IMG/VR virus record: IMGVR_UViG_2693429508_000013
Strand: one strand, 5' to 3'
Source of the DNA: a virus
Taxonomy: Duplodnaviria > Heunggongvirae > Uroviricota > Caudoviricetes
Length of the DNA: 12,511 nt
In this document: piece after piece, positions 1-12,075 of the stretch
Layout: every line of letters starts with the position of its first letter
How positions within the stretch are numbered: the first letter of the stretch is position 1
The notes under the pieces: model-generated
Seen by the model: only the letters and a program-made list of their open reading frames with translations
Database searches by the model: none
What the model was told of the DNA's origin: nothing
Translations under genes and position numbers: made by a program

Positions 1-182
1 ACACTAAATCAGTAAGTTGGCAGCATCACCCCGCCACAGAACAATTATTGCTTTTGCCGTTGATGACAATAAAGTTTTTATCGCAGGCGTATACCACGGT
101 GGGCAAATCTATGAAACCGATTTTTTATCCAGTGCACCGTAAAACCCCCATCCTTCAGGGCGTGGCGGATATCAAACTTTGG

Positions 183-1265
183 TCATTTTCTCTGGCTGAT
201 CTTTACCGGATAACCATCCCGAAGATCAATTAAGTGCTCCGGTTCAGAAGCAAACCATGCATAAGATCCCCACGCCAATTCTGGTATTGCCTTTTTAAAA
301 GGCAGAGCACTTCTGTCCATAAATGCCGTAAGGAATGCAAGATTTTTCTCGCTGAACCCAGCGTCAATAGCCAAATGAGTGAGAGTAACTTTTCGTTCCC
401 TGTTTATAGGCCCATCTGTCGCAACTACTTCAGTGAAAACTACAAGCATGTCCGAACCCGTTCGGTCCTCTCCCAAATCAATCAAAATAATATCTGGAAG
501 TGCTTTTGAGGCATCAATATTCAGCCCCAATGCTTTTGCCAATACATCATCCTGAGCAACAACTTTATTCCCGGATTCAGACAACCAGAGCACAGTTGGA
601 TTCTTAAGAAAATTAGGAGCAAAAACTTCGATGACGGCCTTAGCTATTGTACTTGACGGGCCCGGAGCTAAAGTTCTCTTCTCTCCATTTGGGAAAGTGA
701 CGACTACGGCATCAGCAGCAATCACTGCCCCTGATTTCAATAAACGCAACCTAGCAAGAGCGGCTTTGTTCAAATGATTTTCTTGCCAGGAACTTATTGC
801 ACTCAGCAGCGAATCTCCTTCAAGCCCGGCATCAAAGAGTGCTGCAAAAGAGCGATTCAAACTGTAACGAGGACGAGAGGATGTGGTGGGTATACCTTTA
901 CGCTCAACAATTGCATTGCAAGGTATTAGGCCATTTTTTATAGTTTCATCACGTATTGGCTCACGCGTATTTTCCGCATACCATGCATCAGCAGGCCTTA
1001 TCTTTTGTTTAGAGAAAGTCATCTTTACCCAGCTTTCTCTGGACGCATCATCAGTAAGAGCAGCCTGCGAATCTCCCATACTTACAACCTGGCTGGGCCT
1101 TATCCATCGCCCCAGCCCCTCAACCGCACCAGCATAAAACATGACAAAAATTGTTTTTGCAGCTATTTCCCGAATTAAATATCCACGATTCTCAGTCCCT
1201 TCAGGGAAAATTAATTGTAATCTTTCCCGGATAACATTCAATGGGGGAACAACAGGCAGATTCAT
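183..1265 (-). CDS. Putative Type II restriction endonuclease, cognate to the upstream methyltransferase
   Basis: 360-aa ORF. Its ATG (1265-1263) overlaps the TGA stop of the methyltransferase gene (ATGA overlap on the minus strand), so M then R sit in one coupled operon. No methyltransferase motifs. The nuclease call rests on gene context and AT-rich cargo-like composition, not on a recognised catalytic motif. Confidence 0.55.
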   Translation of the reverse strand: MNLPVVPPLNVIRERLQLIFPEGTENRGYLIREIAAKTIFVMFYAGAVEGLGRWIRPSQVVSMGDSQAALTDDASRESWVKMTFSKQKIRPADAWYAENTREPIRDETIKNGLIPCNAIVERKGIPTTSSRPRYSLNRSFAALFDAGLEGDSLLSAISSWQENHLNKAALARLRLLKSGAVIAADAVVVTFPNGEKRTLAPGPSSTIAKAVIEVFAPNFLKNPTVLWLSESGNKVVAQDDVLAKALGLNIDASKALPDIILIDLGEDRTGSDMLVVFTEVVATDGPINRERKVTLTHLAIDAGFSEKNLAFLTAFMDRSALPFKKAIPELAWGSYAWFASEPEHLIDLRDGYPVKISQRK

Positions 1266-3094
1266 GCAATCATCACTCCATAGAAACCAGCGATAGTTCT
1301 CTCAATAATCCGTCTGTGGACGCCAGCATCAATTAACGATTGAATCTCCATCACCTGCTCCAGAGAAGGCAACGGGATTGAATTCAATTCATAGGCCGAA
1401 ACAGCAACACTTCCGCTTATACACCTGAACGCCCGATCGACAACATGCGAATTAAGTAGCATATCAATAACATCAGGGCGAACCGCAGAGAACAATCCGT
1501 TTGAATATACAATATTAATATGGTTTTCAACTACTACGCCACCAGTTTCATCTATAAATCCCTGAGGTAAAATTGCCGCTAAAATCCTTCTGTCCTGTTC
1601 CTTCGATGTTGTCCGCTGAACAAGCACACATTCAGATTTTGTCACAAGGAAACCCTGTTGTGGGGTTATATCGATATAGGGAACATGATTTTTTCTGTCT
1701 GCACTAAAACGAAAACCAGCTGAAGTTATTGATTCCGCCCAGACTAATGGGTAGCTATTTTTTCCTTTCGTCGTACGCAACTGCGACTTAAATCGATTCC
1801 AGACTAACTGACCTGTAGAGACTGAGTATCCCAGATCAGCTAAACGCGTAGACATCTGTTTTAATACATTAAGAAAACAGGCATCATCTTTAACGCGTGG
1901 CAAAAGCCACGTTGCTCCACCTTTTTCTATATCAACATTACCTATTTTCTCAATTTTTGCTTTGTTCAACCCCTTAGGGACAAGTGAGGATACCTGGGCC
2001 CGAACTTTATGTTCTCCCGCCTTGAATGCTGTCAACATTGTTTCCTGGAGAACATCGTCAAAGACCCCATCCCTGTCAGTGACGAAATCAAGGGCATACG
2101 GAGTAGTTTTTTCGGTCAAAAGGGTTCGCAGCGCGGTGAAATACTGCCCACCAAGAAAAGAAGTTGGCGTAAGAAATGCAATAACTCCTGTTTTCTCTTT
2201 AACCATGCGAACAGCTAAGTCGGTGAACAATCCATATAGATTTGCATGACCAAATAACGAACGAGAATATTTTTCTCTCGTTTTAATATCGAGAGTGACA
2301 CGTCCGTAAGGCGGATTCCCTACCACAAGATCATAACCAGAAAATTTATCTTGCTGAAGCGCATCAGCAACAATAATTGTATCTTCAGGCAATCTACGTT
2401 TTACCTTTACACATAGTGGCATTAGTACAGATTCGAGCAATACCAAACTCATCCAAGCCGCAAATGGATCGATTTCTATCCCCTTTAAACGACGACTGAT
2501 TCTCCTCAACATCCATTCAGGGGAAGACCCCTTGTCTTTTTTTAACATTCGAATGGCTACTGGTGCCAAAAATGCACCGCCACCACACGCAGGATCAATA
2601 ACCGATGCATGAGAAAAATCAACACCAGACTTTTCAGCCAGGTCCAAGAGACGCGCTACCAAAGGTGGGGGGGTATAGTAAGCCCCCAATTCCGAACGGT
2701 AAGCGGATGGCAGCATTACCGTATAAATTGACCCAATCAGATATCCAGCGTCCTCCGCCGGAAATTGAGCAATAAGCTCACCTGTTCGTTCAGCGAGCTC
2801 GCGTGCATCACATGGAATGTCTTCTATGTAAACAGTGTGCGGTACTGCCCTCATTTTAATGCTGCTTTTTTGCTTTTTTGCAAGGGTATCCCAATATGCA
2901 GCTACGATGCTGAAGCAGTATGAGCGGGCATGCATCAACCTTGACTGCCCGGTTTTGTAATTGCCCGCATAACCTTTGGCCATGGCTTTACAAGTTTGAT
3001 ATCTTTCCAGATTAGAAAACTCATTATCTGTAAAAAAATCAAAATGTTGCACATTCATAATGTAAAATCCTAATGTATCAAACATGCGGGCCAT
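1262..3094 (-). CDS. N6-adenine DNA methyltransferase, gamma class (Eco57I-like amino-MTase fold)
   Basis: 610-aa ORF with motif X (YYTPPPLV), motif I SAM-binding (VIDPACGGGAFL) and motif IV catalytic (DLVVGNPPYG) in the gamma-class order X-I-IV. The long C-terminal half is consistent with a target-recognition domain. ATG at 3094-3092. Confidence 0.88.
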   Translation of the reverse strand: MARMFDTLGFYIMNVQHFDFFTDNEFSNLERYQTCKAMAKGYAGNYKTGQSRLMHARSYCFSIVAAYWDTLAKKQKSSIKMRAVPHTVYIEDIPCDARELAERTGELIAQFPAEDAGYLIGSIYTVMLPSAYRSELGAYYTPPPLVARLLDLAEKSGVDFSHASVIDPACGGGAFLAPVAIRMLKKDKGSSPEWMLRRISRRLKGIEIDPFAAWMSLVLLESVLMPLCVKVKRRLPEDTIIVADALQQDKFSGYDLVVGNPPYGRVTLDIKTREKYSRSLFGHANLYGLFTDLAVRMVKEKTGVIAFLTPTSFLGGQYFTALRTLLTEKTTPYALDFVTDRDGVFDDVLQETMLTAFKAGEHKVRAQVSSLVPKGLNKAKIEKIGNVDIEKGGATWLLPRVKDDACFLNVLKQMSTRLADLGYSVSTGQLVWNRFKSQLRTTKGKNSYPLVWAESITSAGFRFSADRKNHVPYIDITPQQGFLVTKSECVLVQRTTSKEQDRRILAAILPQGFIDETGGVVVENHINIVYSNGLFSAVRPDVIDMLLNSHVVDRAFRCISGSVAVSAYELNSIPLPSLEQVMEIQSLIDAGVHRRIIERTIAGFYGVMIA

Positions 3095-3153
3095 AACATC
3101 TCATGGTGGCGCATAGCAAACTGGCCCGAAGAATATCACGCACCAAGTCGATC

Positions 3154-3169
3154 TCATAACCCGTTATGA
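3154..3169. promoter_or_regulatory. Perfect inverted repeat TCATAAC-CC-GTTATGA in the R-M upstream region
   Basis: 7-bp arms with a 2-bp spacer, about 60-75 bp upstream of the methyltransferase start codon in the 3095-3308 intergenic region. Candidate operator; no binding protein identified. Confidence 0.3.
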
Positions 3170-3308
3170 CAATAAATCTTTGTAGCTGAACTCACTTGGT
3201 GATTTGTCAATCATTCCTGGCCTCCAGTTCGTCCTGAATCTCTTTATCGAGTTCACCGTATTTGTTAGTCCTCATCACTCACGACTTGACTTCCAGAAAT
3301 AACCTTGA

Positions 3309-3665
3309 TTATTCGGGGCTATATTTTGTCACCCTGCGTATCCGCGCTTTCGCATTACGCTCAATCTGGATTAGCTTTTCTATATTTTTTCGCCTTTCCC
3401 GCTCCTCCTGGCGCAAGAGCCTTACATCATCTGCCAGTCTGGTTTCTCTTTTCGCCACAGAGAGCATCCAGTCAAATGGCTCCACAACTGCACCGCAAAT
3501 TTTACAGCGGACCTGACGCTCTTTTTCGTCAACCCGGACAGAAGCGTGATGGCAATATGGTCTTTCCGATGGCTCATAAAGAAAATTAACCTGATTACGA
3601 GGGTTATCCTCTTTTACCGGAAATAAAACAATATTGCTTAACTCATCTTCTGGTTTTATTTCCAT
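3309..3665 (-). CDS. Hypothetical phage protein with a possible zinc-binding motif
   Basis: ATG at 3665-3663 preceded by a strong SD (AAGGAGAGGAG); the longer ORF in the track begins at a GTG at 3722. 118 aa, MEIKPEDEL..., containing C-H-H ... C-x2-C (PYCHH ... CKICG). Same strand as and immediately downstream of the replication genes. Confidence 0.6.
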   Translation of the reverse strand: MEIKPEDELSNIVLFPVKEDNPRNQVNFLYEPSERPYCHHASVRVDEKERQVRCKICGAVVEPFDWMLSVAKRETRLADDVRLLRQEERERRKNIEKLIQIERNAKARIRRVTKYSPE

Positions 3666-3722
3666 GCTCCTCTCCTTTGATGCGAATGCCAGCGGTAATT
3701 GAAGCCTGATAGCTAATTTCAC

Positions 3723-4145
3723 TCACAGTACCGCCTCCTGAAAATCACCCTGATAGAAAGCCGGTACACGCTGCATAACTTCACTCTTCCGGCACTCGCG
3801 ACAGATTATGTTCTGATGTCTGTCGTAGCGGCGTATTTCTCCGTCTGGTAATGACCAGATAAGGTCAGGATCAACCACAGATGGTTTCTTCAGATTTGCC
3901 CTTGAGAGTTTTTTGCGGGCGTTTTGCCAGTCCTTACGAGCCTGTTCAGACGGGAATAACCCGTAGCCAGAGTTGTATACATCCCCACTGGCAACCAGCT
4001 CTCTGGCGAGAACGCTTATTAAATATCTTGTCGCCCCGGTTTTAGCTTCCAGTTGTCGTAACGTCTCGCGCCCACTCTGGCGTACGAGTTCAACAACCTG
4101 CCCCTTAATTTTTTCCCGCTCTTCCTGTGTAAATACTTTTGCCAT
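3723..4145 (-). CDS. Hypothetical phage protein
   Basis: ATG at 4145-4143 (MAKVFTQEE...); the track ORF starts at a TTG at 4160. 140 aa, basic, with a C-terminal CxxC (ICRECRK). Start lies 15 nt downstream of the upstream gene stop (coupled). Confidence 0.6.
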   Translation of the reverse strand: MAKVFTQEEREKIKGQVVELVRQSGRETLRQLEAKTGATRYLISVLARELVASGDVYNSGYGLFPSEQARKDWQNARKKLSRANLKKPSVVDPDLIWSLPDGEIRRYDRHQNIICRECRKSEVMQRVPAFYQGDFQEAVL

Positions 4146-4160
4146 AAGCGCCCCCGGCAA

Positions 4161-4886
4161 TCACTTTTCCGACACAATACGACCGGAGGAATCGACAATC
4201 TGTCGAACAATATCCCGGTGCTTGTTCAGCTCCCGCAACGCGGCGCAGACACGCTCCCACTTCTGGACATGACTTTTCGCCCGACGCAGTTCGCGGTTTG
4301 CCATATGCAGCGATGGTAAAACCAGGTCATCCGCTTGCGTTTCGGTGAACGATGGCAACGACTGCACAATGTCCGCCACAGTTTCTGTTTTAATTTCTTC
4401 CTGTGTTGCAGCTTCCTGTACCGGTAACGCAACACCTGCTGGCTGAGGAAAGACTTTACCATCCGTTTCCGCTATGGATGCGGCTTTCGGCTCTGCCGGT
4501 AAATCAGCGCCCGGTATGCAGTACCGAAATTTACCGCCCTGATTCACGCGAATCAGACGCCCTTTGCTGATTGCCATGGCCAGCGATGAATTCGCCCGGC
4601 GGGAGGTAATCCCGAACATCAGTGCCAGCTCATCCGCCGTTTGTGGGCCATGTTGTTCAATCGCCTCAGTCAGCATTTGCGCTGTCACTTTCGGTACCGG
4701 TGACACTGGTTCACTTTCACCAGCCTGAATCAGCCACCACATCGAACCCTTGTTATCCGCTTCACCACGGCGCTTCAGTTTCCACAGTTCGTTGACCGCA
4801 TCTTCACGGCTGATTCCAAGGCGGGACGCCACCACATGTGAAGAGGCTCTTTTCAGTGCTTTCAGTGCGTCAAATACAGTTTCCAT
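4161..4886 (-). CDS. Hypothetical phage protein with two winged-helix-like segments
   Basis: ATG at 4886-4884 with SD GGAGGA 6 nt upstream (minus strand); the track ORF starts at a TTG at 4904. 241 aa. N-terminal [26 protein letters not shown] and a second [31 protein letters not shown] segment resemble HTH/winged-helix units. Starts 22 nt after the DnaC-like stop. Confidence 0.65.
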
Positions 4887-4907
4887 TAAAACATCCTCCA
4901 ACAAAAA

Positions 4908-5654
4908 TTACTTCACAACTCCCGGAAAGCTGACATTTGAACGCCAGCTATCCCAGTTAAACGTCACCCACCGACAACCGTTCATGGTCATGCGGTCCAT
5001 AATCCTCTCACCAAGAAGCGTGCTCATTGCGGCATGATTCAGGTTTGTTAACATCCCGACACTGCACAGTGATGCTGTCCGGCGATCAATTATCTGGTGC
5101 AATACCACCTGCTCGTTTTTCGTCTCCCGCTGAATGCCTATTTCATCCAGGACCAGCAAATCAACCCCGCAAAGCTCCTGTAAAAATTTTTCACCGGATT
5201 TGCCGTTGTCGTAGCTGTCATGCAACACGCTCATGACATCAGACACGGTGACGATAATCACGCTGCGCCCCTTCGCCATCAGCCAGTTACCCATCGCCGC
5301 TGCAAGGTGATTTTTCCCGGTGCCGGTTTTACCGCTGAACACAAAATTCGTGCACCCGGTCATCAGTTCGTCAGCTATGGATTTGGCCTGGCTCAGCGCG
5401 TATTTTTGCCCGTCGTTCTGCACCTGATAATTCGCAAACGAGCATTTGCTGTGCAGAGGCTGGATGCCCGAACGATTCAGGATTTTTTCCACCCGCAACT
5501 GGCGATTCTGGCGGTTAATCTCCTCGCTGCGTTTTCGTCCTTCAGCAAGTTGCCATTCCCGCCACTCCTCCACCGTCCGGTACGGTGGAACCGCCCCCTG
5601 TGGTGCAAGTCTGTGAATACGTTCAAGAACCCCGGCTGCCGCAATGTTTTTCAT
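4908..5654 (-). CDS. DnaC-like replicative helicase loader (AAA+ ATPase)
   Basis: 248 aa with Walker A (FSGKTGTGKNHLA) and Walker B (DLLVLDEIG). ATG 5654-5652 lies 6 nt after the TGA of the upstream O-like gene (coupling). Confidence 0.9.
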   Translation of the reverse strand: MKNIAAAGVLERIHRLAPQGAVPPYRTVEEWREWQLAEGRKRSEEINRQNRQLRVEKILNRSGIQPLHSKCSFANYQVQNDGQKYALSQAKSIADELMTGCTNFVFSGKTGTGKNHLAAAMGNWLMAKGRSVIIVTVSDVMSVLHDSYDNGKSGEKFLQELCGVDLLVLDEIGIQRETKNEQVVLHQIIDRRTASLCSVGMLTNLNHAAMSTLLGERIMDRMTMNGCRWVTFNWDSWRSNVSFPGVVK

Positions 5655-5660
5655 GCCACA

Positions 5661-6725
5661 TCACCCCCTGAATCCCGGCGGAATTTCGGTATCCGGTTCA
5701 GAAATATGATTCACACAACGCTGGTTGTTCGTGCCGCTTACCGGGAGCAACCAGGGGTTTTCAAAATTCCGGTCCGGCCCAAAAAACGTCGTCGCTCGCT
5801 GAACAAATTCCGTTCCCGCTTTCCCGGTCGCCGCCAGGTATCTCGCGTAACGCCTCACACCATCCAGCATGGTCTCTGGTGGCACCCCCTCGCGCAATCT
5901 GGCCTTCCAGGCACTGAATGCGGATTTCTTCGGGTTTGCCCCGGCACGCAACGGGTATTCCCGCCAGACCTGTTCGAACACATCCGGATAATCCACTCGT
6001 CCCACAGGCTGCCCGGTGTTTTCCGGGGCTACCCGATCGGCTTCCCGCTGAATGGCGGAATCGGCTTCAGGCTGCTGCAGTTGGAGTGATTGCTCCGGCC
6101 TTGCGGTCATCACCTGCTGCACAGCGCCCGAATCGGCTTTCAGCGCATACGCTGAATCGGCTTCCGGTGTCGAGCCTGCTGGCTGACCAGGATTGACGGT
6201 CTGAACATCCCCTGCCTGGTTCGTGGCGTTTTTTACGCCATGGACCATAGTGTTTTGATCTTCTTTATCTGTATCTTTATCTGTATCTGTCGTGACTCGT
6301 CGTGACATGTGCGTGACATTTCGTGACGCGCCGTGACAATCGCCATTTTGTTCCCGCTTTCTTTCCCTCTCTCGCTGCGCCCTCTTGCGCTCTGCAGGAG
6401 ATTTTGCGGTTTGCGAAATATTGCCGTTGTCCTCTTTAAGCACCTGGCGTTTTTCCCATCCAGTGATTAAATCACCATCAAGTACCCGCCCCTGCATCGT
6501 CTGCAAAATTGAATCAATTACCTCTTCTGTCACGTCGAGCGCACTTGCCAAATCTTCTGTCGTGACATCAATGTGACCTCGCGTGACATTTCGTGACGCG
6601 CTCACCAGGAGGTGGATATACACTGCCATCACTGTTGCAATTGGCTGCCCTGACACCCTGGCAATTGTTCGCCACTTAGGGTCATTTGGCATGTCATGCC
6701 ATAATCTGAGCCAGGCGTTAGCCAT
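5661..6725 (-). CDS. Phage replisome organizer / replication initiator (lambda O-like)
   Basis: ATG at 6725-6723 (MANAWLRLWHDMPNDPKW...), SD-like AAGAGG just upstream; the track ORF starts at a GTG at 6731. The N-terminal domain resembles phage replisome-organizer N-terminal domains. The central region is low-complexity, T/D/K-rich, and is encoded by the iteron DNA. Directly upstream of the DnaC-like loader. Confidence 0.8.
   Translation of the reverse strand: MANAWLRLWHDMPNDPKWRTIARVSGQPIATVMAVYIHLLVSASRNVTRGHIDVTTEDLASALDVTEEVIDSILQTMQGRVLDGDLITGWEKRQVLKEDNGNISQTAKSPAERKRAQRERERKREQNGDCHGASRNVTHMSRRVTTDTDKDTDKEDQNTMVHGVKNATNQAGDVQTVNPGQPAGSTPEADSAYALKADSGAVQQVMTARPEQSLQLQQPEADSAIQREADRVAPENTGQPVGRVDYPDVFEQVWREYPLRAGANPKKSAFSAWKARLREGVPPETMLDGVRRYARYLAATGKAGTEFVQRATTFFGPDRNFENPWLLPVSGTNNQRCVNHISEPDTEIPPGFRG
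6263..6337. repeat. Iteron cluster 1 plus adjacent AT-rich direct repeat (candidate origin) inside the O-like gene
   Basis: 12-bp direct repeat CTTTATCTGTAT x2 (6263-6286), followed by five CGTGAC hexamers at 6291, 6301, 6312, 6322, 6332 (10-11 bp spacing, one helical turn). Includes the 20-mer GCGTGACATTTCGTGACGCG at 6311-6330. Confidence 0.65.
6529..6600. repeat. Iteron cluster 2 inside the O-like gene
   Basis: CGTGAC at 6561, 6582, 6592, TGTGAC at 6572, and an inverted copy GTCACG at 6529-6534. An exact second copy of GCGTGACATTTCGTGACGCG at 6581-6600, 270 bp from the first. Confidence 0.6.
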
Positions 6726-6796
6726 ACTCACCTCTTCTGATACCGAATCTTTTTACTCACGAGTTGCCGGGAGCGATTCGATATGGCTATTGTCAG

Positions 6797-7222
6797 TCAA
6801 TGTACTGCCACAGCATTTCCTGCCGGGCCACCACGGTTCATCTGATTGAAACCGGCGATTGCCACTGCGACAAAATCATCAGCGTCTCTCACCAGTCGTT
6901 CATGCGTCTCCACCAGTTCCCGAAAATAAGCTGAACTGTGGCTGCGCATTCGAGCCACCAGCGGAGGTGGCATTGCCCTTTCGATCGCAGGTAACAACGC
7001 CTGAATTTTTTCAACAGCGTCAGGGGTGTCTTTATCCAGCCAACGGAAAATCTTTTGGGTGTTGAGATAAAGCGTGTTGTGCTTGCTGTCGTTATGCAGA
7101 ACCGGAAACGTCATTCCCAGTTCGAAATAAACCCTGGTTATTTCAGCTGCCGGAACTTTTTCACCGTCCGGATGCGCCCAGGCTTTCATCGCCATGCGGA
7201 TGTGTTCATGCTTGATTTTCAT
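6797..7222 (-). CDS. ydaT: YdaT-like protein (CII-like regulator family of Rac-type prophages)
   Basis: 141 aa, MKIKHEHIRMAMKAWAHPDGEKVPAAEI...; recognised from memory as YdaT-like. Its ATG overlaps the TGA of the upstream Cro-like gene (ATGA at 7219-7222). Confidence 0.75.
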   Translation of the reverse strand: MKIKHEHIRMAMKAWAHPDGEKVPAAEITRVYFELGMTFPVLHNDSKHNTLYLNTQKIFRWLDKDTPDAVEKIQALLPAIERAMPPPLVARMRSHSSAYFRELVETHERLVRDADDFVAVAIAGFNQMNRGGPAGNAVAVH

Positions 7223-7482
7223 GAATCAACCCCCGCCGATGGTTGTGTGTTAGCCTGAAACTCAGCAGGCAAGCCGTCAGTTGGGTTGGGGTAGGTTTTA
7301 CTGTCAATCTCATGTGGGGTCACCACCCATCCCGTTGCTTCACACCAACGTAATATTTTTTCTCCTGTAAGTTTTGCACGCCCCGTTATAACGTGGCTGA
7401 CCATCCCTTGGGATGCGCCAACAATCTCAGCAAATGAACTCTGGGTTATATGAAAATGATGCAAATATTCTCCAAGATTCAT
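7219..7482 (-). CDS. ydaS: YdaS-like Cro-type HTH protein
   Basis: ATG at 7482-7480 (MNLGEYLHHFHITQSSFAEIVGASQGMVSHVITGRAKLTGEKILRW...); the track ORF starts at a TTG at 7509. 87 aa, single HTH. Divergent from the repressor gene across an operator-bearing intergenic region. Confidence 0.75.
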   Translation of the reverse strand: MNLGEYLHHFHITQSSFAEIVGASQGMVSHVITGRAKLTGEKILRWCEATGWVVTPHEIDSKTYPNPTDGLPAEFQANTQPSAGVDS

Positions 7483-7517
7483 AATCCGCCCTATGTGATG
7501 TGTTACCAATGCATAAT

Positions 7518-7559
7518 TAATAGCACTGTTATTTTTAAAAGTAAATAGTGATGCTATTT
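7518..7559. promoter_or_regulatory. OR-like operator pair in the divergent promoter region
   Basis: Two 17-bp palindromic sites separated by 8 bp: TAATAG-CACTG-TTATTT (7518-7534) and AAATAG-TGATG-CTATTT (7543-7559, perfect 6-5-6 palindrome). They lie between the divergent Cro-like and repressor starts. Confidence 0.55.
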
Positions 7560-7593
7560 CAAAGTGATTAGCAATCTTATTAGAATTGGATGT

Positions 7594-8094
7594 ATGAAAA
7601 GAAAATCATTGTCAGACACCGACCTCAACGCCGCCAGAAGACTGAAAGAAATCTGGATGGCAAAGAAATCTCAGTTGGGATTGACTCAGGAACGTGCGGC
7701 GGAAATTATGGGGTTTTCAACACAAGGGGCGGTAAGTCACTACCTAAATGGTCAAACCCCACTAAACCTTGAGGCTGTTCTAAAGTTTGCTGGCTTACTG
7801 AAAGTTCCCCCTGAGTCAATCAGGCCAGACATGGTAGATTTGCTGCAAATTGCAAGGATGTATTGTCGAGAACCACAGCAAGATAACATAGTCGCATTAC
7901 CAGCAGACACAGAACAAACAGAGGATGAACTACCGTTTGCCGTAGAGCCGATGGAACGAGATTTAATCCATACGTTCAGAGCTTTTCCGAAAGAAGATCA
8001 AGAACACATGCTTCAGGAGATGAAAGATAAAAAAGAATCAATGGATCGTACGGTTGCGCGGTGGTTAGCTGCACAAAAAGGCCGTCGCGCCTAA
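7594..8094 (+). CDS. Phage repressor-like HTH regulator without a peptidase S24 domain (PaaR-like)
   Basis: ATG at 7594 (MKRKSLSDTDLNAARRLKEIWMAKKSQLGLTQERAAEIMGFSTQGAVSHYLNG...); the track ORF starts at a GTG at 7564. cI/434-type N-terminal HTH, acidic C-terminus, no Ala-Gly/Ser-Lys LexA-like features. First gene of a three-gene unit ending in parE. Confidence 0.75.
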   Translation: MKRKSLSDTDLNAARRLKEIWMAKKSQLGLTQERAAEIMGFSTQGAVSHYLNGQTPLNLEAVLKFAGLLKVPPESIRPDMVDLLQIARMYCREPQQDNIVALPADTEQTEDELPFAVEPMERDLIHTFRAFPKEDQEHMLQEMKDKKESMDRTVARWLAAQKGRRA

Positions 8095-8113
8095 ATCAGA
8101 GGAGATATGTAAA

Positions 8114-8308
8114 ATGAGTACAGTCCTTTCCCCAATGGTTTCAGAATTTGAGACAGTTGAGCAAGAAAATAGTTACAACGAATGGCTGCGGGCCAAAGTA
8201 GCAGCAAGCCTCGCGGATCCCCGCCCGGCGATTCCGCATGATGAGGTAATGGCGGAAATGGAACAAATTATTGCCCAAATTGCTGCTGCAACTCACAGAG
8301 GTGAATAA
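8114..8308 (+). CDS. paaA: PaaA2-like antitoxin, partner of ParE
   Basis: 64 aa, MSTVLSPMVSEFETVEQENSYNEWLRAKVAASLADPRPAIPHDEV...; SD GAGGAG 9 nt upstream. Stop overlaps the parE start (TAATG). Confidence 0.7.
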   Translation: MSTVLSPMVSEFETVEQENSYNEWLRAKVAASLADPRPAIPHDEVMAEMEQIIAQIAAATHRGE

Positions 8309-8598
8309 TGTTACCCGTTTTATGGCTACCATCTGCTCGTGATGATTTGCGCCAGATCGTAGCCTACATAGCTAAAGAAAATCCCGCGGCAGCACGCAGA
8401 ATGAAAATTCGAATTGAAACATCCGTTTTGCCGCTCACAGAGCATCCTTACCTGTATCCTCCAAGCGAGCGAGTTCTTGGTCTTCGTGAAATTGTAACTC
8501 ATCCTAACTACATCATCCTTTACCGAGTAACAGCATCAAGCATAGAAGTAGTAAATATTGTGCATTCTCGAAGACAGTATCCAGGCAAAAACAGTTAA
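8308..8598 (+). CDS. parE: ParE/RelE-family toxin
   Basis: 96 aa, MLPVLWLPSARDDLRQIVAYIAKENPAAARRMKIRIETSV... HPNYIILYRV...; typical ParE length and conserved segments. Translationally coupled to the antitoxin. Confidence 0.85.
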   Translation: MLPVLWLPSARDDLRQIVAYIAKENPAAARRMKIRIETSVLPLTEHPYLYPPSERVLGLREIVTHPNYIILYRVTASSIEVVNIVHSRRQYPGKNS

Positions 8599-8614
8599 TT
8601 ATTCCCGCCGACAG

Positions 8615-8637
8615 AACCACCTTAGGGTGGTTTTTTC
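8615..8637 (+). terminator. Rho-independent terminator after parE
   Basis: Stem AACCACC / GGTGGTT with loop TTAG (8615-8632), followed by a T-run (to 8636). Confidence 0.6.
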
Positions 8638-8652
8638 TTGCCCCAACAAAAA

Positions 8653-8694
8653 CAATAGCGATGCTATTTACATCAAAAAATAATGATGCTATTG
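8653..8694. promoter_or_regulatory. OL-like operator pair upstream of the rightward dicB-type operon
   Basis: Two 17-bp sites separated by 8 bp: CAATAG-CGATG-CTATTT (8653-8669) and AAATAA-TGATG-CTATTG (8678-8694). Same half-site consensus and spacing as the 7518-7559 pair. Embedded in a larger inverted symmetry AACAATAGC ... GCTATTGTT (8651-8696). Confidence 0.55.
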
Positions 8695-8875
8695 TTTCAG
8701 GCGTCAACCCACCCCGCCCCACAGAATGCAGGGCAATACTTCGAGTTACCAGACAGTGGTCAGGGGTTAAGTAGCCAGCCCGAGGCGTAAGAACATGACG
8801 GCAGGGTTCAATCTTTAACTATGCAGCAGGTTTTTTGTTCCGCCACCCCGGCGTTAAGGGGAAATGAGGTCAGCA

Positions 8876-9027
8876 TGGATACTATCGATCTTGGCAACAA
8901 CGAATCTCTGGTGTGCGGCGTGTTCCCTAACCAGGATGGAACGTTTACCGCCATGACGTATACCAAAAGCAAAACGTTTAAAACCGAATCTGGCGCGCGT
9001 TGCTGGTTAGCCAGAAACACTGACTGA
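8876..9027 (+). CDS. Small hypothetical protein (YdfA-like by position and size)
   Basis: ATG at 8876 with SD GAGG 6 nt upstream. 50 aa, MDTIDLGNNESLVCGVFPNQDGTFTAMTYTKSKTFK.... First gene after the OL-like operators. A longer start at 8821 lacks an SD. Confidence 0.5.
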
Positions 9028-9038
9028 TGAGGCTGACG

Positions 9039-9404
9039 ATGGAATTTAAAGATTTACCGTCTGATGTACAGAAAACAGCAGCTCATACATTGCATTCTGT
9101 GCTGCGAGAAATCGGGAAAGATATTGCAAGCGAGCCAGCAAAAGATCTGGCCCGGAAAATCAAGACCGCTTTCGTTGAGCTTTATAATGTTGGCACTGAC
9201 TCTGAAACTGTCGAGACCAAGACCGTAAGTTCACCAATATTCTCACTTGAGCCAAGCGTATTATCAGGTGAAATATGCACCGAGATTTCCAGCGAACTGC
9301 TTCCGGTAATACGAGAAGCAATTCGCCGTCGCGGTTTGGATGGAAGTTATGATCATGACGTTCTGCAAGTTCTCAGGACAATGGTGACTTCACTGGGGAT
9401 TTGA
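9039..9404 (+). CDS. Hypothetical phage protein
   Basis: ATG at 9039 (MEFKDLPSDVQKTAAHTLHSVLREIGKD...) with SD GAGG upstream. 121 aa. Confidence 0.55.
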   Translation: MEFKDLPSDVQKTAAHTLHSVLREIGKDIASEPAKDLARKIKTAFVELYNVGTDSETVETKTVSSPIFSLEPSVLSGEICTEISSELLPVIREAIRRRGLDGSYDHDVLQVLRTMVTSLGI

Positions 9405-9573
9405 TCCCTGCGTCCTCTAAGCTTTTGATATAGCGGTCCTCCAAGAAGCGGTAAATTTTGTCGAAATCATCTTTTCCCTCTGGTTTATTCAGAGGATTAC
9501 AGGACCCGTAAGTAGCGGCATACATTTCAACCGTTTTATCAAAAATATAAGAGACAAATTCTTCTTTAGTCAT
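9373..9573 (-). CDS. Small hypothetical protein
   Basis: ATG at 9573-9571 with a good SD (AAGGAAA) upstream on the minus strand. 66 aa, MTKEEFVSYIFDKTVEMYAATYGSCNPLNKPEGKDDFDKIYRFLEDRYIK.... Convergent with the 9039..9404 gene and overlapping it by 32 bp. Confidence 0.45.
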   Translation of the reverse strand: MTKEEFVSYIFDKTVEMYAATYGSCNPLNKPEGKDDFDKIYRFLEDRYIKSLEDAGIKSPVKSPLS

Positions 9574-9814: not shown

Positions 9815-10301
9815 AAAGTGAATTTTGTGATGCGGTGAATGCGGCTCAGCGCACGCGGCACAGTTAAAAAGCGATTAGTTCCCCCGTATCGGGTGGTTAT
9901 GGGTTTCCCTGTATCCGGCGTTAATTGTTAACTGGTTAACGTCACCTGGAGGCACCAGGCACCGCATCAACAAAGTTCACTTCGGTGATGAAAGGAAAGA
10001 GAAAATGTTGAATGTAGCTATTGAAAACCAGAACGGGTGGAATTATAGTGCACCTGCACCTTATAAAACGGGTGCCGGGCGTGGAAACCCGAACGTTACT
10101 CGAGCGCATAGCCGCGCTGAAGCGGTTTTTTTATGCGTAATGCACAGCTCCATTCAAATTATGGTGGGATGTGCAGGGCAGTCGCAAGACTGGCCGGGTT
10201 CTCGAGTGACCGGTATTTCCACCCCTGTACGTCTCACCACCCTTATGGTCGTGGAAAACCTCGGTGGTGAGTTAATTAACTTATCACTCGAGGATGCCAT
10301 C

Positions 10302-10859
10302 ATGGCTACTATCCCTGCCCTTTCTCACCCTGACGTAACCATCGAAAATGGTCGCGCTGTCACTACGTCTATTGCGATCGCAGAGTTCTTTGGCAAGCGT
10401 CACGACAATGTGTTACGTGCCATCGCAAATACTGAATGCTCACCTGAATTTAACGCCCTCAATTTTGAGGACGTCACCTACACTGACGCCAAAGGCGAAA
10501 AACGCCCGATGTACCAAATCACCAAAAACGGCTTCGTTTTCCTGGTGATGGGATTCACTGGCAAAAAAGCCGCTGCATTTAAAGAAGCCTACATTGCTGA
10601 GTTCGATCGCATGGAGGCCGAACTGCGCCAGAATAACACCCCACCCACTGACAAAATAATTCCAGGCGATGGCCGCACCCTGGTTGTTCACTTCGACGAA
10701 CGCGGCAACATCAGATTCACCGAAACCGTTCCTGATGGCGCACGGGTCTGTACCATGGAGACTTTCCGGTTTTATCTGGAAGAACAGGGATGGACTCTTG
10801 TTAACCGGGGCGCAATTAAAAATATGACTGTAGAGCAATTACTCAAAATTCATTGTTGA
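10302..10859 (+). CDS. rha: Rha-family phage regulatory protein
   Basis: ATG at 10302 with SD AGGA 7 nt upstream. 185 aa, MATIPALSHPDVTIENGRAVTTSIAIAEFFGKRHDNVLRAIAN ... YQITKNGFVFLVMGFTGKKAAAFKEAYIAEFDRME, i.e. a Rha N-terminal domain signature. An in-frame upstream ATG at 10005 would add 99 non-Rha-like residues. Confidence 0.8.
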   Translation: MATIPALSHPDVTIENGRAVTTSIAIAEFFGKRHDNVLRAIANTECSPEFNALNFEDVTYTDAKGEKRPMYQITKNGFVFLVMGFTGKKAAAFKEAYIAEFDRMEAELRQNNTPPTDKIIPGDGRTLVVHFDERGNIRFTETVPDGARVCTMETFRFYLEEQGWTLVNRGAIKNMTVEQLLKIHC

Positions 10860-10869
10860 GGACGCGATA

Positions 10870-11058
10870 ATGGAAACGTTATTACCAAACGTTAATACGA
10901 CTGAAGGTTGTTTTGAAATTGGTGTCACTATCAGTAACCCTGTATTTACTGAAGATGCCATTAACAAGAGAAAACACGAACGGGAGTCATTAAATAAAAT
11001 ATGCATTGTTTCAATGCTGGCTCGTTTGCGTCTGATGCAAAAAGGATGCTGGCGATGA
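10870..11058 (+). CDS. dicB: DicB-like cell-division inhibitor (copy 1)
   Basis: 62 aa, METLLPNVNTTEGCFEIGVTISNPVFTEDAINKRKHERESLNKICIVSMLARLRLMQKGCWR; SD GAGGA 7 nt upstream. Recognised from memory as DicB (62 aa in K-12 Qin). Confidence 0.8.
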   Translation: METLLPNVNTTEGCFEIGVTISNPVFTEDAINKRKHERESLNKICIVSMLARLRLMQKGCWR

Positions 11059-11246
11059 ATACAGCATTTGCACTCGTTCTGACCGTTATTCTTAATACGG
11101 GCGAACCAGCTGAACTGGTTACCGGAGTATACAACTCCATGAAAGAATGCGTGGCTGCTGCAGCTGAACAGAAAATTCCCGGTAACTGTTATCCGGTTGA
11201 TAAAATCATTCACCAGGATAATAAAGAAGTCCCGGCAGGTCTTTAA
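11055..11246 (+). CDS. ydfD: YdfD-like small membrane/lysis protein (copy 1)
   Basis: ATG at 11055 overlaps the dicB stop (ATGA), SD AAAGGA 8 nt upstream. 63 aa, MNTAFALVLTVILNTGEPAELVTGVY..., hydrophobic N-terminus. Same size and position as YdfD of Qin. Confidence 0.7.
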   Translation: MNTAFALVLTVILNTGEPAELVTGVYNSMKECVAAAAEQKIPGNCYPVDKIIHQDNKEVPAGL

Positions 11247-11334
11247 AGCAGCCACGTAATAAATATCCGGTTTCATTTTTATATGCCAGCAATGGCAGGG
11301 ATTTGTTCACCCTTAAATCTGTAATGAGGTTAAA

Positions 11335-11604
11335 TACATTGCTGAGTTCGACCGCATGGAGGCCGAACTGCGCCAGAATAACACCCCACCTGCTGACAAG
11401 ATGATTCCGGGTGATGGTCGCACTCTGGTTGTTCACTTCGACAAATTCGGCAATGTCGAATTCACCGAAACCGTTCCTGATGGCGCACTGGTCTGTACCC
11501 TGGAGACTTTCCGGTTTTATCTGGAAAAACAGGGATGGACTCTTGTTAACCGGGGCGCAATTAAAAATATGACTGTGGAACAATTACTCAAAATTCATTG
11601 TTGA
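11335..11604 (+). pseudogene. Truncated rha copy (3' portion only) created by the tandem duplication
   Basis: Homology to rha begins mid-gene at the duplication junction. The rha frame opens just after a TAA at 11314-11316; the first ATG (11356) has no SD. Encodes only the C-terminal 82 residues (MEAELRQNNTPPADKMIPGDGRTLVVHFD...). Confidence 0.65.
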
Positions 11605-11614
11605 GGACGCAATA

Positions 11615-11803
11615 ATGGAGACGTTATTACCAAACGTTAATACGTCTGAAGGTTGTTTTGAAATTGGTGTCACTATCAGTAACCCTGTATTTACTGAAGA
11701 TGCCATTAACAAGAGAAAACACGAACGGGAGCTATTAAATAAAATATGCATTGTTTCAATGCTGGCTCGTTTACGTCTGATGCCAAAAGGATGTGCACAA
11801 TGA
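11615..11803 (+). CDS. dicB: DicB-like cell-division inhibitor (copy 2)
   Basis: 62 aa, METLLPNVNTSEGCFEIGVTISNPVFTEDAINKRKHERELLNKICIVSMLARLRLMPKGCAQ. Differs from copy 1 at 5 of 62 residues, mostly at the C-terminus. Confidence 0.8.
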   Translation: METLLPNVNTSEGCFEIGVTISNPVFTEDAINKRKHERELLNKICIVSMLARLRLMPKGCAQ

Positions 11804-11991
11804 ATACAGTATTTGCACTCGTTCTGACGGTTTTTCTTGTTTCCGGTGAACCGGTTGACATGGTTACTGGCGTATACAGCTCAATGAAAGAATGTATGAC
11901 TGCCGCAGCGAAACAGAAAATTCCCGGTGACTGTTATCCGGTCGATAAAGTTATTCACCATGATAATAACGAAATCCCGGCAGGTCTTTAA
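11800..11991 (+). CDS. ydfD: YdfD-like small membrane/lysis protein (copy 2)
   Basis: ATG at 11800 overlaps the dicB copy-2 stop (ATGA). 63 aa, MNTVFALVLTVFLVSGEPVDMVTGVY.... Differs from copy 1 at 16 of 63 residues. Confidence 0.7.
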   Translation: MNTVFALVLTVFLVSGEPVDMVTGVYSSMKECMTAAAKQKIPGDCYPVDKVIHHDNNEIPAGL

Positions 11992-12075
11992 AACAGTTCC
12001 GTAATAAATATCCGGTTTCATTCTTATATGCCAGCAATGGCAGGGGTTCGCTCAACCTTAATTAAGGAGAAAAAC

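Follow-up and report, generated by a model that had tools for sequence, protein, structure and literature searches.

What are the three small genes that sit between a helicase-loader gene and a restriction-modification cassette in this viral DNA, and do they work together? A sequence-only reading of the window (the whole 12,511-nucleotide stretch analysed here) had called them three coupled genes, had recognised none of them, and had put them forward as candidate regulators or anti-host factors. We find that all three can be recognised: ORF A belongs to DUF1627, ORF B to DUF977/phrog_142 and ORF C to phrog_1621, and all are common in prophages of E. coli and Shigella. These family identities are held with high confidence. 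Our preferred reading, to which we give a probability of roughly 0.6, is that they are three separate accessory genes in the early-right (pR-type) operon of a Rac/CP-933P-type lambdoid prophage, where they occupy the 'ren/nin' slot. The mechanisms that we propose for the individual proteins are tentative, more doubtful than probable.

The extent of each gene depends on the choice of start codon. ORF calling of the window gave longest open frames at 4161..4904, 3723..4160 and 3309..3722, all on the minus strand; in these, alternative TTG and GTG starts would abut the stop codon of the preceding gene. Starting from ATG recovers exactly the 241-, 140- and 118-aa proteins that had been described after the DnaC-like gene, with intergenic gaps of 21 nt (DnaC-like gene to A), 15 nt (A to B) and 57 nt (B to C). 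The genes had been characterised as close or overlapping; with gaps of this size they are close, and none of the trio overlaps another. The ATG starts are likely correct, because three kinds of evidence agree on them: the profile matches begin near ATG (DUF977 from residue 6 of a 145-aa ORF for B, and phrog_1621 from residue 20 of the 137-aa long frame of C), RefSeq homologues have lengths of 241 aa for A, 140-141 aa for B and 118 aa for C, and Shine-Dalgarno-like sequences lie 5' of A (GGAGGA) and 5' of C (AAGGAGAGGAG). The resulting coordinates, together with those of the features discussed below, are collected in Table 1.

Table 1. Positions in the window of the three genes, their predicted domains and motifs, and flanking features
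Feature	Position	Strand	Details
YdaV / DnaC-type helicase loader	4908..5654	(-)	Directly upstream of ORF A; PRK12377, 1.2e-150
ORF A	4161..4886	(-)	241 aa from ATG at 4886; DUF1627 / YdaW-family protein
ORF A winged helix 1	4731..4877	(-)	aa 4-52; AF2 H-beta-H-H-wing, pLDDT about 85
ORF A winged helix 2	4518..4682	(-)	aa 69-123; AF2 pLDDT 84-90
ORF A predicted disordered acidic linker	4314..4496	(-)	aa 131-191; pLDDT below 50
ORF A C-terminal long helix	4167..4316	(-)	aa 191-240; AF2 pLDDT 61-77
ORF B	3723..4145	(-)	140 aa from ATG at 4145; DUF977 / LygF / Ren-like protein
ORF B Ren motif	3753..3812	(-)	aa 112-131, N-x2-C-x-E-C-R-x-S-x2-M-x-R-V-x-A-F-Y
ORF C	3309..3665	(-)	118 aa from ATG at 3665; phrog_1621 protein, putative zinc knuckle plus long helix
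ORF C putative zinc site	3495..3554	(-)	C38-x-H40-x13-C54-x2-C57
ORF C single basic helix	3321..3479	(-)	aa 63-115, 53 residues
Mosaic junction	3298..3308		Just past the ORF C stop, at the start of the PstI-type R-M cassette

The three reading frames are real genes, as judged from their profile E-values together with a third-codon-position bias in their substitutions. Against diverged homologues, the counts by codon position are 6/3/30 in ORF B, where the third position dominates, and 2/2/11-19 in ORF C; in ORF A they are 14/13/26-32, a weaker bias than in B and C. Because substitutions concentrate at third positions, we conclude that purifying selection acts on all three. One might have supposed that these were chance open frames or decayed pseudogenes of a cryptic prophage, given that K-12 ydaW is a truncated remnant and that databases hold many fragmentary or fused versions. 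However, A, B and C each match their family profiles over the full length, and intact copies are present in sequenced, viable phages (Rac-SA53, mEp460, ArgO145 and the Shigella Stx phages 75/02 and POCJ13). The profile matches and substitution data refute this explanation, whose probability we put at virtually nil.

The surrounding gene set identifies the region as a Rac/CP-933P-type lambdoid immunity and replication region. Neighbours on the minus strand are a Cro/YdaS-like gene, a YdaT-family gene, a YdaU-type initiator (phrog_3729) and the YdaV/DnaC-type loader, whose gene also matches IstB_IS21 (2e-19) and phrog_50, and the gene order runs YdaU-like, YdaV-like, A, B. The plus strand carries an HTH repressor followed by a PaaA2-ParE pair (7564-8598), and a PstI/BsuBI-type restriction-modification pair lies downstream of the trio. 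Between about 7600 and 2400, a consensus scan of the minus strand detected nothing resembling a promoter or a terminator, so the arrangement is, as far as a consensus scan goes, compatible with one early operon. The 'ren/nin' slot itself extends from the replication genes to the late regulator.

Stretches related to this one are widespread, being present in 4104 of 5426 complete E. coli genomes. L019 matches positions 3305..9536 of the window at 99.7% identity and diverges at 3305; the IMG/VR contig L015 is 99.85% identical to positions 1..5979, restriction-modification cassette included, and both L015 and L012 have the same layout of C plus MTase plus REase as the window. At least 470 IMG/VR contigs encode a relative of B, and 502 encode a relative of C. 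Broader scans added little: an Rfam scan of 3309-4886 found no RNA family, NCBIfam held no family matching A, B or C, and a search of PDB chains with sequences and family profiles returned no meaningful match for A or C.

ORF A is a member of DUF1627 (PF07789; 3.9e-93, 309.8 bits against a gathering cut-off of 28.1), with residues 82-236 covering the entire profile (1-155 of 155), and it matches phrog_630 at 1.8e-121. A DUF1627 protein from Shigella sonnei shares 99% identity with it; YdaW (b1361) of the K-12 Rac prophage, which belongs to the same family and occupies the same slot after ydaV, shares 57% over residues 1-139. ORF A is full-length, whereas the K-12 protein is a truncated version that lacks the end of the linker as well as the conserved C-terminal helix. 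Built on a shallow alignment (22 sequences, 64-95% identical), the AF2 model of A reaches modest confidence, with a mean pLDDT of 66; in it, the two winged-helix-like segments that had been picked out from the sequence are both predicted as winged helices, and the long C-terminal helix contains a segment, L200-K222, that is almost invariant. The first winged helix has weak Pfam HTH matches over residues 8-51 and resembles ArsR, MarR and ScpB winged helices in Foldseek. The second matches phrog_142 weakly (1.4e-4), and residues 69-120 align to residues 14-64 of the winged helix of the B family (hhalign, probability 76%, E 2.3e-5).

Searched with Foldseek, the A model retrieved winged-helix proteins exclusively, with ScpB at the top, then ArsR and MarR, at borderline E-values. 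ScpB (3w6j_E) aligns over both N-terminal winged-helix domains, and CadC, AntR, PagR and MarR proteins align with a probability of about 1.0 and E-values of 4e-3 or worse. The likeness of A to ScpB, to tandem winged-helix proteins and to MarR/ArsR proteins is one of fold, with no sequence homology (E 1e-3 or worse). A basic 78-aa ORF in the +1 frame (4226..4462) was considered as an overlapping gene and rejected, as its frame is broken in most homologues, even 90%-identical ones. Short direct repeats within ORF A look like chance.

Could A and B be MarR/ArsR-like, sequence-specific regulators of phage or host promoters, with C as a zinc-ribbon DNA-binding co-factor? All three proteins are basic (pI 8.5-9.5), K-12 YdaW appears in a list of predicted transcription factors (PMC9308461), and Foldseek and Pfam matches extend to MarR, ArsR, TrmB and GntR winged helices. 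By AF2 model and Foldseek, A does adopt the winged-helix fold of MarR/ArsR-type regulators, but it does not qualify as a member of those families, since every HTH-family Pfam match falls under its gathering score, and the matches to solved regulators are all weak (E 1e-3 or worse). In addition, a search for operator- or iteron-like repeats around the trio turned up none that was convincing, and no regulatory role is reported for Ren, the lambda relative of B (PMC3640518; bioRxiv 10.1101/2021.04.19.439022). The best tandem winged-helix match is to ScpB, a protein binder; because winged helices of the ScpB type bind proteins, the ligand class of the winged helices in A is not fixed as DNA. We consider this regulatory role unlikely.

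ORF B is where the link to a named lambda gene emerges. The protein is a member of DUF977 (PF06163; 2.5e-30, 105.7 bits against a gathering cut-off of 22.1, profile 1-134 of 134), a small family for which a search yielded 102 cluster representatives at E ≤ 1e-3 among 1.84 billion. It also matches phrog_142, 'Ren-like exclusion protein' (2.3e-46, profile 1-115 of 116), and lambda Ren falls in the same PHROG (1.6e-41, profile 11-110 of 116). Compared directly by BLASTP, B and Ren align with an E-value of 1e-5, and the strong resemblance is confined to the C-terminal 20 residues, where the two have the motif N..ECRxSxxMxRVxAxY in common. N112, E117, C118, R119, S121, M124 and R126 are invariant in Ren and in 15 diverse DUF977 proteins; in ORF B, VLAFY directly follows these invariant residues.

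The N-terminal part of B is probably a winged helix, to go by weak matches of its profile to winged-helix proteins in the PDB, a published description of DUF977 as a winged helix (PMC2686095) and the hhalign alignment to the second winged helix of A. Both B and Ren thus combine an N-terminal region of winged-helix type with the C-terminal motif, and both genes lie downstream of the helicase-loader gene, in the same slot of the same operon; many loci have B immediately after the replication genes. The two also differ. Ren has 96 aa and lies directly after P as the first gene after the loader, whereas B is the second; B has 44 more residues, and an insert separates its winged helix from the motif. 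B is basic with a C-terminal CxxC, as had been noted (pI 9.5; C115/C118), and C115 is conserved in DUF977, whereas lambda Ren has Phe at that position and hence FxxC. We considered this CxxC as a zinc site common to Ren and rejected it on account of that substitution; nor is it a self-contained zinc site in B, because the protein has just two cysteines. LygF, from the Sdr I region of Salmonella Enteritidis, belongs to the same family and lends its label to phage annotations. That label was taken from a difference region of Salmonella Enteritidis and says nothing about function.

The relation to Ren, and the position that goes with it, might also suggest that A, B and C are accessory replication factors joining O (YdaU) and the loader complex at the phage origin. 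The trio directly follows the initiator and loader genes in the same operon, and A is always first after the loader, whether that is DnaC-like or P-like. In lambda, the transcript from pR covers ren along with O and P; ren has been described as 'likely involved in DNA replication', and the Rex proteins interact with both O and Ren in two-hybrid assays (bioRxiv 10.1101/2021.04.19.439022). Yet ren is dispensable for the lambda replication phenotypes of P-lethality and replicative killing (PMC3640518), each of the three genes is often missing from otherwise similar replication modules, and C usually lies far from replication genes, adjoining Q. A shared function in replication therefore appears distinctly unlikely.

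ORF C is a member of phrog_1621 (1.8e-54; long-ORF residues 20-134, profile 1-118 of 134). It has no NCBIfam or PDB relative and no Pfam family above threshold, the match to Zn_Ribbon_TF being weak (2e-4; 21.1 bits, below the threshold of 29). A sequence search found 150 homologues, in Escherichia, Shigella, Salmonella, Klebsiella, Kluyvera, Yokenella, Serratia, Erwinia, Pluralibacter and Yersinia. The C-H-H...CxxC motif that had drawn attention to this protein corresponds to C38-H39-H40...C54-x-x-C57; across 27 sequences from several Enterobacterales genera, C38, H40, C54 and C57 are invariant and H39 is not. The AF2 model (pLDDT 74, with a disordered N-terminus) predicts short beta-hairpins at 43-61 that bear the four putative zinc ligands. 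Alignment and model together thus indicate four conserved ligands in two pairs on hairpins, the pattern of a zinc ribbon or zinc knuckle. The core of the long helix that follows, LRxEExxRRxNIEKLIQIERNAKARIR, is almost invariant in the same 27 sequences.

In Serratia, Yersinia, Erwinia and Klebsiella, the homologue of C lies just upstream of an antiterminator gene, after RusA, NinH or YbcO. This is the pre-Q position of NinH, YbcO and other small proteins of the lambdoid nin region, although no relation could be detected between the sequence of C and those of NinB through NinH, YbcO or RusA, and C, unlike those proteins, has its own putative zinc knuckle plus long helix. ORF C is probably a stand-alone nin-region protein with a zinc-stabilised, oligomerising helix. 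Together with the kinship of B to Ren, whose gene follows P, the nin-region setting of C elsewhere bears out the original argument from position, which had likened the locus to the nin-type slot of lambdoid phages.

Whether the trio acts as a unit can be judged from how its members are distributed. Among 78 loci anchored on B, A is present without C in 19, C is adjacent without A in 16, neither is present in 13 and both are present in 16. Since every combination of A and C occurs around B, the trio is one of many mosaic combinations of independent modules. In 80 IMG/VR loci anchored on close homologues of C, B is usually directly upstream (at offset -480 in most of the E. coli-type loci), and A and the DnaC-like gene are often absent, leaving an 'O-B-C' arrangement. 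Where A accompanies C in these loci, its identity ranges from 61 to 100% while that of C is about 96%, and recombination breakpoints fall between the genes. Distant homologues of C have neither A nor B nearby in all four of the genera Serratia, Yersinia, Erwinia and Klebsiella. In one Salmonella locus, C comes after DnaC, DUF4406 and a 104-aa gene, and in another a 2.2-kb gap separates DUF1627 and DUF977 from C. In annotated E. coli Rac-type prophages, the order is ydaV, DUF1627, DUF977 and a 118-aa hypothetical gene, as in the window.

These distributions also bear on the idea that A, B and C form one system of three components, for example a complex for anti-defence or regulation in which the parts have to act jointly. 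The genes do share a strand and are separated by short gaps, the whole trio recurs in E. coli and Salmonella, B directly precedes C in most C-anchored E. coli-type loci, and A and B contain a related winged helix. Such a system is nonetheless very unlikely, given that every presence/absence combination is found, that breakpoints separate the genes and that distant homologues of C do without the other two. No PADLOC model matched at a meaningful score either: there was none for B or C and a single borderline match for A (E 0.0099, 12.5 bits). The three genes do not make up a fixed system; A, B and C assort independently, which runs counter to their original description as coupled. B and C, which sit side by side in most E. 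coli-type loci, are the commonest pair of neighbours in E. coli, and a functional B-C pair is therefore conceivable.

How might three such accessory genes act? None of the proteins has a catalytic signature, all resemble small adaptors or binders of nucleic acid or protein, and each is individually dispensable across phages. As separate accessory genes of the early-right operon, they would be dispensable modulators made early in lytic growth. By analogy with lambda Ren, B may let the phage develop in the face of abortive exclusion of the Rex type, probably by contacting the replication initiator or the Rex proteins. Toothman and Herskowitz reportedly found in 1980 that Rex+ lysogens exclude ren mutants. 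A point against a Ren-like reading of B is that the host in question does not have to encounter a Rex system. A, as a related winged-helix adaptor, may likewise neutralise a host or prophage factor, and C would act alone rather than with A and B, its typical position being just before Q.

Two observations on K-12 ydaW touch on what A might do. Deletion of the gene lowered early biofilm formation. Its overexpression blocked the RcaT toxin of retron-Sen2 in a screen (bioRxiv 10.1101/2020.06.22.160242; PMC11951105), a result that comes from the truncated K-12 YdaW and not from a full-length protein such as A. It is tempting to extend these leads to a role for A, B and possibly C as early counter-defence proteins, each directed against a different abortive-infection system, whether encoded by the host or by prophages resident in it. 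Rex-like systems would be the target of B, as they are of Ren, and retron-type toxins would be that of A, as the K-12 ydaW result might suggest. We think this proposal improbable as it stands. If it were true, the lambdoid 'ren slot' would be an anti-defence hotspot of exchangeable winged-helix adaptors. Leads to the anti-host role suggested from the sequence are limited to the Rex-resistance phenotype of Ren and this toxin-blocking result.

With respect to prior knowledge, A, B and C are already catalogued accessory families, and the window adds none to the databases. Their annotated records bear solely hypothetical, DUF or LygF labels, none with an experimentally defined function, in agreement with the first description of the genes as being of unknown function. 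The literature on LygF, DUF1627, DUF977, YdaW and Ren likewise offers names and screen results and no mechanism. Nor did any of the three prove homologous to a well-characterised housekeeping protein, Ren being named yet mechanistically uncharacterised. Taken together, the observation made by the sequence-only reading is confirmed, and its interpretation is partly supported.

These families are nevertheless carried by most E. coli and Shigella genomes, by way of lambdoid and Stx prophages, without a known mechanism, and lambda ren itself is still unexplained decades past its discovery. The link between DUF977 and Ren, the domain layouts of the three proteins and their behaviour as exchangeable single modules now provide hypotheses that can be tested cheaply.

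The restriction-modification pair beyond ORF C (the phrog_1621 gene) is, on sequence comparison, an inserted block of cargo, because the cassette is missing from L019, a prophage contig that is almost the same as the window (99.7% over positions 3305-9536) and diverges from it 4 nt past the ORF C stop, which puts the junction at about 3305. The same restriction-modification arrangement as in the window is present in the related loci L012, L013, L015 and L016.

Annotated features of the window outside ORFs A to C
Feature	Position	Strand	Length	Remarks
PstI/BsuBI-type restriction enzyme	within 183-3094	-	360 aa	
Eco57I/N6-type methyltransferase	within 183-3094	-	610 aa	
YdaT-family gene	7222..6797			divergent from toxin-antitoxin module
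Cro/YdaS-like gene	7509..7219			divergent from toxin-antitoxin module
HTH_3 repressor	within 7564-8598	+	176 aa	first of three toxin-antitoxin genes
PaaA2 antitoxin	within 7564-8598	+		PF21217, 3e-23
ParE toxin	within 7564-8598	+		PF05016, 2e-17
isrK	10056-10132	+		Rfam, above gathering score, 61 bits
C4 antisense RNA	10157-10244	+		Rfam, above gathering score, 77 bits

The window also contains a three-gene toxin-antitoxin module of the paaR2-paaA2-parE2 type, and the O157:H7 prophage CP-933P has the same layout, with the module divergent from Cro/YdaS-like and YdaT-family genes. Further along, the isrK and C4 matches both fall within a mechanically called ORF (10005-10859) that matches the Pfam family 'Ash' at its N-terminus and Rha at its C-terminus. 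The segment matching 'Ash' probably encodes RNA and not protein, and we liken it to an immI/anti-repressor control region. Near the window end lies a tandem duplication of ~745 bp (about 10844-11334 and 11589-12061), with near-identical ORF pairs (10870-11058 and 11615-11803; 11001-11246 and 11746-11991), and both copies match a single stretch of related loci.

Within the YdaU-type initiator gene, GTGAC motifs recur in two clusters (6262-6337 and 6559-6597) whose 39-nt units are 72% alike, and 12 nt are repeated perfectly in tandem at 6262-6285; these repeats are probably origin iterons. In many related prophages, L031, L028 and L034 among them, this initiator gene is followed at once by the DUF977 gene, with sequence corresponding to window position 5663 joined to that at 4149, and these loci have neither the DnaC-type loader nor DUF1627. 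Such phages therefore appear, from their gene content, to replicate without a loader gene of their own.

We also considered a very basic 78-aa ORF (4226-4462, minus strand) in the +1 frame of the linker region of ORF A, the DUF1627/YdaW-family gene. Its frame is open in about one third of 47 distinct ORF A homologues and interrupted in the others, including some that are 90% identical, and we therefore rejected it as a conserved overlapping gene.

Finally, sequence from ORF C recurs in the database proteins P0039, P0041, P0036, P0006 and P0043, fused to DUF977 or DUF1627 parts or to an Ea22-like N-terminus. These fusions mostly form single-member clusters and look like products of deletion or recombination; they show frequent recombination in the stretch spanning ORFs A, B and C.
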